Below, one piece after another: positions 12,064 through 27,744 of a stretch of DNA of 64,000 bases. The stretch spans positions 121,086,001-121,150,000 of the forward strand of contig OX597817.1 in assembly GCA_951406725.2 (NCBI GenBank). Direction: 5' to 3'. Numbering within the stretch: the first letter of the stretch is position 1; every line of letters begins with the position of its first letter. The notes beneath the pieces were generated by a model that saw only the letters and a program-made list of their open reading frames with translations, made no database searches and was not told the DNA's origin. The translations under genes were made by a program, and so were the position numbers. This DNA comes from Octopus vulgaris. Its lineage: Eukaryota.

Positions 12064-12165
12064 TTCTCTTTCTTTCCTGATGAGAAGATTACATTATTTT
12101 ACACCGTTTATTCCTTTGGAATAAAACCAATATTGTCTTTGAAACATATGTTGAAAATAAAAGAA
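12064..12165 (+). ncRNA. Type I hammerhead ribozyme with intact core, in an element ending at (TA)n ~12311
   Basis: tttc-CTGATGA(12077-12083)-gaagat...gtcttt-GAAA(12141-12144)-C-ATAT-GTT-gaaa; stems I, II and III can all pair. Confidence 0.8.
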
Positions 12166-24939: not shown

Positions 24940-24998
24940 TATATATACATACATACATATATATATATATATGCATACATACATACATATCTATCTAT

Positions 24999-25041
<43 letters not shown>

Positions 25042-25072
25042 TATATGCATACATACATACATATCTATCTAT

Positions 25073-25111
<39 letters not shown>

Positions 25112-25262
25112 CATACATATCTATCTATATACATACATACATATATATATACATACATACATATCTATCTATATACATACATATATATATACATACATAC
25201 ATATCTATCTATATACATATATATATACATACATATCTATCTATATACATACATATATATAT

Positions 25263-25298
<36 letters not shown>

Positions 25299-25347
25299 GC
25301 ATATATATATATATATACATATATGTATACATACATATATATATATA

Positions 25348-25405
<58 letters not shown>
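24940..25405. repeat. (TA)n/(CATA)n microsatellite, left flank of the large palindrome
   Basis: Direct reading. Confidence 0.95.
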
Positions 25406-25409
<4 letters not shown>

Positions 25410-25688
25410 ATTAATTAATAAGGGTGAGAGAATTAGATACTAATTTAATAGTATATCTATTCAACACCAAGTGGCCTAGTGCTCCGAGAAACCTGGATTA
25501 TTATAATATTTTATAATATATTATAATATTTTTACAAAATAAATATAAGAGAGTGGTCACTATATGGCTCACTCTAGCACTAGTTAATCCAAAGGTTTCA
25601 ACCACAAAAATACATGTTTCCCATGAAAGTCAGTACGATTGTTAGCTCACACGGACAGGGCAAATAAAAAATAACAAAAATATAGATT

Positions 25689-25772
25689 ATTTTGGGACAA
25701 TTGTTTCGCTATTAATGAATTAAATGTAATTTTACTTACAAAAAAATCCACTTGTAGCTCGTCAGCCAAAAC
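25689..25772 (-). ncRNA. Type I hammerhead ribozyme (intact)
   Basis: Reverse complement of 26581-26664. Confidence 0.9.
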
Positions 25773-26580
25773 TATCTGGATGAAATCCACTCAATCACAC
25801 GCCAGATTTTACCATAACGATAAATACACGTGTGGTTCAATTGATTACATCCGACGTTATAATTCAAATGCCCCAACTAACAGCGCGCCAAACTTTCACG
25901 GAAAACAAATACTGCATTTAGAAATAAATGCAGTTTAATTATAATTAATTAATAAGGGTGAGAGAATTAGATACTAATTTAATAGTATATCTATTCAACA
26001 CCAAGTGGCCTAGTGCTCGAGAAACCTAGATTATTATAATATTTTATAATATATTATAATATTTTTACAAAATAAATATAAGAGAGTGGTCACTATATGG
26101 CTCACTCTAGCACTGGTTAATCCAAAAGGTTTCAACCACAAAAATACATGTTTCCCATGAAAGTCAGTACGGCTAACAATCGTACTGACTTTCATGGGAA
26201 ACATGTATTTTTGTGGTTGAAACCTTTTGGATTAACTAGTGCTAGAGTGAGCCATATAGTGACCACTCTCTTATATTTATTTTGTAAAAATATTATAATA
26301 TATTATAAAATATTATAATAATCCAGGTTTCTCAGAGCACTAGGCCACTTGGTGTTGAATAGATACACTATTATATTAGTATCTAATTCTCTCACCCTTA
26401 TTAATTAATTATAATTATGCTGCATTTATTTCTAAATGCAGTATTTGTTTTCCGTGAAAGTTTGGCGCGCTGTTAGTTGGGGCATTTGAATTATAAGGTC
26501 GGATGTAATCAATTGAACCACACGTGTATTTATCGTTATGGTAAAATCTGGCGTGTGATTGAGTGGATTTCATCCAGATA

Positions 26581-26664
26581 GTTTTGGCTGACGAGCTACA
26601 AGTGGATTTTTTTGTAAGTAAAATTACATTTAATTCATTAATAGCGAAACAATTGTCCCAAAAT
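26581..26664 (+). ncRNA. Type I hammerhead ribozyme (intact)
   Basis: Stem I ttttgg/ccaaaa; core CTGACGA (26588-26594); stem II gcta/tagc extended by agtggatt/aattcatt and tgtaa/ttaca; GAAA (26646-26649); stem III AC-AATT-GT; GUC site with predicted cleavage after 26657. Confidence 0.9.
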
Positions 26665-26816
26665 AATCTGTATTTTTGTTATTTTTATTTGCCCTGTCCG
26701 TGTGAGCTAACAATCGTACTGACTTTCATGGGAAACATGTATTTTTGTGGTTGAAACCTTTTGGATTAACTAGTGCTAGAGTGAGCCATATAGTGACCAC
26801 TCTCTTATATTTATTA

Positions 26817-26871
<55 letters not shown>

Positions 26872-27373
26872 GTATATATATATATATGTATATATGTATA
26901 TATATGTGTATATATATATATATATATATACACATATATATATATACATATATATATATATATGTATACATATATATATATACATACATACATGTGTGTC
27001 TGTGTGTGTATGTATGTAAGCACACTACTGGCACTCCATCAGTCATGACAAAGGTTCCAACGGATCTGATCAACAGAACTAACTCTGAACGGATGAAAGT
27101 TAAAGTGCAAGAGGCTGAGTACTCGACAGACATGTGTACTCTTATTGTAGTTTCTCAGGTAGATTCAGCATGACACAGAGTGTGACAAGGCTAGCCCTTT
27201 GAAATACAGCTACTACTCATTTTTGCTGCCAGCTGAGTGGACTGGAGCAACGTGAAATAAAGTGTCTTGCTGAAGGACACAACACATCACTGAGGATTGA
27301 ACTCGTGACCTTACGATCGTCAACTGAATACCTTAACCACTAAGTCATGTGCCTTCATATATATATATGTGTG

Positions 27374-27435
<62 letters not shown>

Positions 27436-27744
27436 GTGGGTTACACTCATAACCCCTATCTCACTTTATATATATATATATAGGTTGCAAATTCCGGCAC
27501 AAGACTAGCAATAAAAGAATATGTGTGTAGGCTGCGCTGGAGTAAACTGATTGATCATGTTGACATCAGTGCACAATTTGTAATTATTTTACTAACTCTG
27601 AACGGATGAAAGTTAAAGTGCACCTTGGTGGAATTTGAAAACGGAATATAAATATAGATAGAATGCTGCTAAAAAAATTTTCCTGGTGCTTTAATGATTC
27701 TACCAGTTCACCTCCATTGTATATATGTGTGTGTGTGTGTATGT

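Follow-up and report, generated by a model that had tools for sequence, protein, structure and literature searches.

The 534-nt hammerhead-bearing repeat at positions 25406-26815 of the window (the whole stretch of 64,000 nt of Octopus vulgaris DNA that was analysed) belongs to a young, abundant, genome-wide and non-coding family, whose insertions end at two fixed sites, one per arm, have random inner ends, contain one sequence type per locus and read through the ribozyme site. By every feature testable here, the locus is classified from its sequence as a non-LTR retrozyme. We regard its mobilisation by a Penelope-like element as almost certain, priming from both broken target ends as highly likely, and a circular RNA template as probable. 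The whole reading that we favour, and consider reasonably likely to be right, is that of a retrozyme with a borrowed Penelope-like enzyme, which primes at both ends of one (TA)n cut and probably copies a circular RNA.

Structure of the locus

Unit positions were numbered m1-534, corresponding to window positions 26172-26705. The unit is 534 nt long with 32% GC, below the 45% used as a criterion for retrozymes, and forms two head-to-head arms of 766 and 644 nt, which are embedded in (TA)n. The features are as follows (window coordinates, strand, description).

24940..25405, no strand: left (TA)n/(TACA)n microsatellite, the insertion target; 247/251 family ends enter TA-rich sequence
25406..26171, minus: left arm, m10-534 + m1-242, 766 nt, 1.43 units; its outer end is the downstream fixed site T2 (m242)
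25406..25535, minus: 130-nt 'tail' (m113-242), lying between both fixed end sites, at the left outer end only
25690..25771, minus: hammerhead (type I) in the left arm, with cleavage predicted after the C at 25696
26171..26172, no strand: blunt head-to-head inversion junction m10 / m1, common to no other locus examined
26172..26705, plus: one full 534-nt unit, with internal fixed-site copies at ~26283 (m112) and ~26413 (m242)
26172..26815, plus: right arm, m1-534 + m1-110, 644 nt, 1.21 units; its outer end is the upstream fixed site T1 (m109-112)
26582..26663, plus: type I hammerhead of the right arm, with 6-bp stem I, long stem II and palindromic stem III ACAATTGT; predicted cut after C26657
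26642..26692, plus: ~50 nt that match, at 76-80% identity, the pseudo-LTR found in Hydra-clade Penelope-like elements of the same genome
26816..26990, no strand: right (TA)n microsatellite

An earlier note on this DNA had described a unit without a meaningful reading frame, repeated about 1.4 times leftward and 1.2 times rightward, in a palindrome with near-identical arms of about 635 bp inside (TA)n. Indeed, we measured 1.43 and 1.21 units, the mirrored part was 635/634 nt with 8 substitutions and 3 single-base gaps (11 differences), and both ends entered (TA)n. No coding frame was found in the unit, where the longest stop-to-stop frame had 87 aa, and no reverse transcriptase plus GIY-YIG frame was found in the unit or attached to it at the sampled loci. 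The high identity of the arms, which the note had taken as a sign of recent activity, is to be expected from birth, because both arms copy one template; with an arm divergence of 1.3%, mostly at private positions, the window locus is among the more diverged loci compared. Beyond the right microsatellite, two identical 32-nt pieces lie 513 nt apart (27078-27109 and 27591-27622), which are probably copies of a common short repeat near microsatellites.

Distribution of the family in the genome

The assembly examined comprises 2.8 Gb in 227 contigs. Searching it with the unit gave 1,212 candidate places, and the 40 that were scored had full-length matches at 97-100% identity. The exact 25-nt cut-site pattern gave 2,399 matches and its reversed control 0, so the genome holds at least 2,399 units. 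At many loci the units were lined up head-to-tail in arrays of as many as ~15, and no coding sequence was attached to the arrays in the loci examined. These arrays, the absent coding sequence and the two-start-site ends described below support the proposal of a retrozyme or non-autonomous Penelope-like element.

One family insertion lies within a segment of at least 3.4 kb, which is present three times on contig C1 (L065, L164 and L166) together with other mobile-element remnants. The shared flank was considered as a longer parent element and this was rejected, as there is a single insertion inside a duplicated segment. Among the literature titles and abstract openings searched, which include few subscription journals, none dealt with the family, with strict one-site-per-arm pairing or with single-template evidence; the family may already be annotated somewhere.

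Two fixed ends, one on each arm

In the ribozyme sense, the arms end at m109-112 (T1) or at m236-242 (T2), two fixed sites 130 nt apart. The exact end patterns occurred genome-wide 793 times for T2 (m242 followed by TA) and 558 times for T1 (m112 followed by TAT), while the reversed-pattern controls gave 0, and 247 of 251 fixed ends (two duplicated loci counted in) entered TA-rich sequence. When 100 T2 and 65 T1 places were listed on contig C1 and the first 101 Mb of contig C2, each of the 33 neighbouring end pairs no more than 12 kb apart combined a T1 with a T2 end in head-to-head orientation (p = 2.5e-11 under independence).

For the locus set, the first 135 distinct sites (132 complete, 3 cut by the stretch edge) were enlarged by 22 stretches, 20 of them picked as long arrays, and reduced by 2 duplicates of one segment to 152 complete sites: 100 two-armed, 51 one-armed (29 T2, 22 T1) and 1 of another form. 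The two-armed sites consisted of 93 T1+T2, 6 T2+other and 1 T1+other, with 0 T1+T1 and 0 T2+T2, that is, one site per arm in 93/93 insertions with both ends at fixed sites. The sample is non-random, many loci having been found via one end pattern or by length, and the second arm's choice of site is unbiased by that. This two-site end rule is the signature of the Penelope 'tail'. A flanking duplication, for which more than 4 bp is the retrozyme criterion when one is present, was visible in 1 of 154 sites, because the flanks are (TA)n; the one site, L043, has a flanking duplication of 27 nt including the TA run, possibly a target-site duplication.

Read-through and inversion junctions

The inner ends were analysed in 231 arms, with 12 complex or duplicate loci excluded, and the arm starts were evenly spread over the unit in a flat distribution. 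The ribozyme site was crossed 466 times against 3 stops, and 4 arms started near m487 where 3.9 were expected. Among 486 units spanning the site, 463 were exact and 16 had a substitution, with 0 indels in these 479, and 7 were unmatched by the pattern. Therefore, a cut linear monomer, whose 5' ends should pile up at the ribozyme site, was rejected as the template. A slight excess of starts near m1 (8 vs 3.9 expected) may be an alignment-boundary effect.

The inversion junctions of 89 two-armed loci showed overlaps of 1-4 nt in 37, longer overlaps in 5, a blunt joint in 18 and extra bases in 29; 69 of the 89 joined positions more than 25 nt apart, and none of 103 junctions recurred outside one duplicated segment. 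T2 arms extended past the T1 site in 74/89 loci, neither arm was contained in the other in 14/89, and the arms shared fewer than 10 positions in 9/89, where this near-zero overlap rules out a simple fold-back. With arms that end at different fixed sites and, in those nine loci, have almost no sequence in common, fold-back, the earlier note's word for the arrangement, is wrong as the general mechanism. Inner ends lay within 25 nt of each other in 20/89 loci, several at short palindromes, against 8.2 by permutation (p = 0.0002). If two same-sense cDNAs paired through a palindrome, this excess would be accounted for, and the antisense-template self-priming proposed by Arkhipova et al. 2013 (PMC3846280) would not be needed.

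Sequence identity within insertions

Substitutions amounted to 0.24% within an arm, 0.28% between the arms of one locus and 2.65% between loci (749 pieces of 149 loci, the between-locus figure from a 10% sample of pairs), and in the first locus set alone to 0.30%, 0.32% and 2.92%, respectively. Zero substitutions were found in 5 of 30 loci with at least 4 full units, including arrays of 10, 11 and 15 units. Moreover, 329 non-majority variants were fixed across both arms of their own locus, 9 of them private to the locus. This near-identity within loci therefore indicates that both arms were copied from a single RNA, or else from RNAs that were identical and had one source; assembly polishing could overstate the identity within arrays.

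The arrays of L121 and L122 interleave two haplotypes that are present family-wide, and 13 within-locus variants, in 9/57 loci, were common to both arms. Such mixed arrays are not predicted by a pure monomer circle and need multimeric templates or later gene conversion. In L121, L122, L126 and L206, variants stood at an apparent spacing of 2, 3 or 4 units, and L121 repeated four haplotypes twice in order; by permutation, neither a period of 3-4 units (lowest p = 0.05 and 0.08 in 10 arms) nor a variant order common to both arms (p = 0.16-0.23) reached significance.

Predicted hammerhead ribozyme

The type I hammerhead reported for each arm was found again with its core and stems, and the two copies of the window locus were identical: stem I TTTTGG/CCAAAA, core CTGACGA, a 50-nt stem II arm, GAA, and ACAATTGT. 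RNAfold predicted hammerhead stems I and II to form (z = -5.1; 0/200 shuffles equally stable) and left stem III, an 8-nt palindrome, open in the monomer. In dimer folding, the lowest-energy prediction was a stem-I-swapped structure without an intermolecular stem III duplex, and the 8-bp stem III duplex taken alone had -6.4 kcal/mol. The circular fold of the 534-nt unit was predicted to be highly paired (-148 kcal/mol, z = -7.6, 40 shuffles). The Rfam scan that the earlier note had suggested as a check gave no hammerhead match in the window, at the gathering threshold or at E<=5, where only microRNA-type matches due to the palindrome and TA runs appeared; Rfam probably misses the motif because stem II is 50 nt long. 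A second hammerhead-like motif of a different family (CTGATGA, long stem II, GAAACATATGT) lies at window position 12077 on the plus strand and resembles one in L332.

Across loci, variation in the core was confined to N7, and no shared variant was seen in GAAA, stem III or C17. A C-A mismatch in stem I marks a common subfamily (45/122 loci); 412C was unpaired in 45 loci, and 491G in stem I was found only alongside 412C (4 loci). A looser pattern gave 2,545 matches altogether, with sister hammerheads among them, and covariation of the stems was seen among these sister families. In the comparison of 34 stem signatures that were seen in at least 2 loci (out of 69), pair 3 of stem I was T-A in 20, C-G in 9 and T-G in 3, pairs 2 and 3 of stem II alternated among C-G, T-A, A-T and G-C across sister families, and the stem III palindrome switched jointly from A/T to G/C in 7 signatures, counts which are not independent because the core and outer stem III pairs are fixed by the pattern and the rows are related. 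Overall, the ribozyme seems to have been maintained. Dimerisation improves cleavage by amphibian retrozyme hammerheads that have a palindromic loop (PMC7229834), and a motif that cuts in multimers and is quiet in the monomer circle would suit the cycle proposed below.

Candidate helper elements in the same genome

The genome contains several Penelope-like families with long open frames, which were sampled in part (150 of 6,136 and 140 of 11,494 candidates scored). Sister hammerheads sit in families with open frames of 842 and 980-1091 aa that have DKT and CxCx5C, the diagnostics of the Hydra clade (PMC8557442); RWK/RWR was found in two of three of these Hydra-type candidate helpers. Pfam gave no relevant domain match on three full-length frames, and the families are termed Hydra-type on the motifs, a weak similarity to the 781-aa reverse transcriptase described below and a sub-threshold GIY-YIG match in a related copy. 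The copies L321, L324, L326, L329, L330 and L339 have asparagine-rich linkers, long-stem-II hammerheads and open frames of 842-1091 aa. Like the Hydra-clade elements described (PMC8557442), these candidates combine canonical hammerheads, (TA)n insertion, DKT and CxCx5C; their tails are ~80-124 nt, and 11/12 of their two-armed copies are T1+T2. The short two-armed Hydra-type insertions L189:55-567 and L224:1394-2425 lie directly in the (TA)n tail of another Penelope-like family.

The unit and the Hydra-type candidates have in common a long-stem-II hammerhead, long tails and the one-per-arm rule. The unit is the pseudo-LTR of no sampled Hydra-type family: among the sampled families, ~50 nt were alignable at 76-80% identity, and, going on from the cut site, the fixed ends are reached after 160 and 290 nt in the unit vs ~35-45 and ~125-160 nt in the autonomous Hydra-type elements. 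One insertion, L022, has a T1 arm and a second, chimeric arm (L022:2053-2343), in which m292-503 is joined to the 76-nt tail of the 842-aa family and then to TA; a search of the genome for further chimeras with a Hydra-type tail found this single copy only, and it could be a nested insertion. Since the Hydra-clade elements share the ribozyme type, the long tails and the pairing rule, we presume that the helper is probably an element of this clade.

Another young Penelope-like family has two overlapping frames of 479 aa and then 781 aa (reverse transcriptase + GIY-YIG) with DKG and CX2-5CxxC. It keeps the two-end pattern in its two two-armed copies, its tail is 41 nt long, and it shares no nucleotide similarity with the 534-nt unit, so it appears a less likely helper than the Hydra clade. 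Its 479-aa frame matched no Pfam family above threshold. In this family (L225:1981-6772, L238, L228 and L224), the frames are open in many copies, insertion is into (TA)n, and a hammerhead-like motif has a U3-A8 core.

Proposed mechanism and alternative explanations

We predict the following cycle. A tandem array would be transcribed, the hammerheads would cut the transcript, likely in pairs formed through the palindrome of stem III, and monomers, or sometimes multimers, would be circularised by a host ligase. A dimeric Penelope-like RT/GIY-YIG protein, most likely of the Hydra clade, would then cut both strands of (TA)n and prime with one 3' end at m~112 and with the other at m242; each enzyme would travel round the circle for a random length, and the two cDNA ends would be joined bluntly or via short or palindromic microhomology. 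One-armed copies would be events without cDNA from one side. More speculatively, each subunit of a dimeric Hydra-clade enzyme may have one start site and one DNA end, both copying a single ribozyme-made circle in rolling-circle fashion, a refinement that we put forward tentatively.

The circle has one competitor of some weight, an uncut linear multimer, produced by transcription of a tandem source array, which the same enzyme would copy from the same two sites; the hammerhead would then be largely a passenger. It predicts scar-free read-through equally, its heterogeneous transcript fits the mixed arrays with family-wide haplotypes, and an anole Penelope-like protein preferred uncut RNA in vitro and could dispense with its own hammerhead (PMC11167929); uncut RNA being the dominant substrate there counts against a circle. 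However, on such a template arrays could only shrink in each round, yet mutation-free arrays of 10-15 units are found at unrelated loci, the median arm on contig C1 is 348 nt (142 arms) and only 2 arms there exceed 4.3 kb. Moreover, no fixed 5' start was observed in 231 arms, a source junction was copied to another locus in 0/103, and the hammerhead core and stems are conserved, which makes the linear multimer unlikely in our view. A 565-nt contig whose ends overlap by 30 nt, forming a closed 535-nt cycle in one presumed RNA run, was not counted as evidence of circles, because tandem DNA gives an identical graph.

The remaining alternatives concern how the arms acquired their form. Short insertions might later have been lengthened and homogenised by unequal crossing-over and gene conversion, as in a satellite; recurrent variants inside arrays would fit, and local amplification is discussed in a 2026 preprint (10.64898/2026.07.22.740005), but both arms are often multi-unit and mutually identical (L125 with 0 differences over 18,446 between-arm positions), short two-armed copies without a tandem unit already match between arms, and the end rule is left unexplained, so that we hold this improbable. 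Slightly less probable still is a scheme near that of PMC3846280, with one arm made first and the second by fold-back or self-priming, an endonuclease cut setting the second end. The excess of near-perfect palindromes (20/89 vs 8.2) and the identity of the arms to each other agree with it; the loci in which neither arm lies within the other (14/89) or the arms barely overlap (9/89), and the 69/89 junctions more than 25 nt apart, refute it as a general rule, and it could hold for the palindromic minority, the window locus included. That the palindrome is a fold-back read or an assembly artefact is hardly credible: among the sequencing runs examined no contig or read spans the whole locus, but the arms differ at 11 places and have different family-wide end sites and different flanks, 100 two-armed sites including the window locus follow the same rule, and many different inversion joints, as well as TA loose ends at m242, were also present in a sequencing run of a different type.

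Comparison with known systems

Non-LTR retrozymes of animals are already in the literature, together with the Penelope elements proposed as their helpers (Cervera and de la Pena 2020, PMC7229834; Li, Clavereau and Pollet 2026, 10.64898/2026.07.22.740005). The family resembles them in that its tandem units are non-coding, low in GC and furnished with a single type I hammerhead, and in the proposed route from circular RNA to tandem cDNA by Penelope-like enzymes. The unit of 534 nt is longer than the 170-400 nt RNAs of the former paper and lies inside the 51-972 bp of the latter, and it differs further in its 50-nt stem II and in a motif that Rfam misses; as far as the available text of both papers goes, insertion ends, inverted arms and tails are described in neither.

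These ends are those of endonuclease-bearing Penelope-like insertions, which show tandems truncated at their 5' end, an inverted copy truncated likewise, a tail on one side only, two start sites of reverse transcription, AT-rich or (TA)n targets and junction palindromes (PMC3846280, PMC8557442, PMC11167929). In the description of Craig et al. 2021 (PMC8557442), tandems are partial, a 5'-truncated copy lies inverted, and a tail of 30-40 bp is often present at one end. Frangieh et al. 2024 (PMC11167929) found in vitro that cleavage and extension take place on both target strands and that the tail corresponds to the sequence from one internal start site to the other; the strands did not differ in their start site in that study, and a dimer was predicted. 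Unlike these elements, the unit has no coding frame and its tail is 130 nt instead of 30-40; the Penelope papers describe the tail as optional or often at one end, whereas the unit family has one site per arm in 93/93, and its single-template evidence argues against self-priming.

In LINE-1 twin priming, cDNA synthesis likewise starts from both ends of the target, and microhomology joins the products head-to-head, the second primer site being variable and the two pieces non-overlapping. In contrast, both sites of the unit family are fixed, and 74/89 T2 arms pass T1. Non-autonomous Chlamys elements such as MRC1 are likewise non-autonomous, Penelope-like and multicopy in head-to-tail insertions (PMC8557442), but hammerheads of the canonical kind are absent from the Chlamys clade as described there, and at the 3' end its non-autonomous members are similar to their helpers.

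The class is already known, and what differs from the described cases is the full Penelope insertion anatomy on a retrozyme, the 130-nt tail and the strict end rule. The origin of tandem and inverted Penelope-like insertions has been described as unresolved (PMC8557442), and the return of retrozymes to the genome as a hypothesis (PMC7229834). The family is young and large and serves as a natural data set in which the rule is sharp: each arm uses one start site, and each insertion one template. With a 534-nt RNA, a protein of roughly 900 aa and open-frame candidate helpers in the same genome, both questions are directly testable in vitro. If true, the subunit-assigned rolling-circle model would unite the Penelope tail, the inverted ends and the tandem arrays and would name the retrozyme's helper. 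Further, an enzyme able to insert a small circular RNA into (TA)n in concatemeric form would be of interest to builders of RNA-templated insertion tools.
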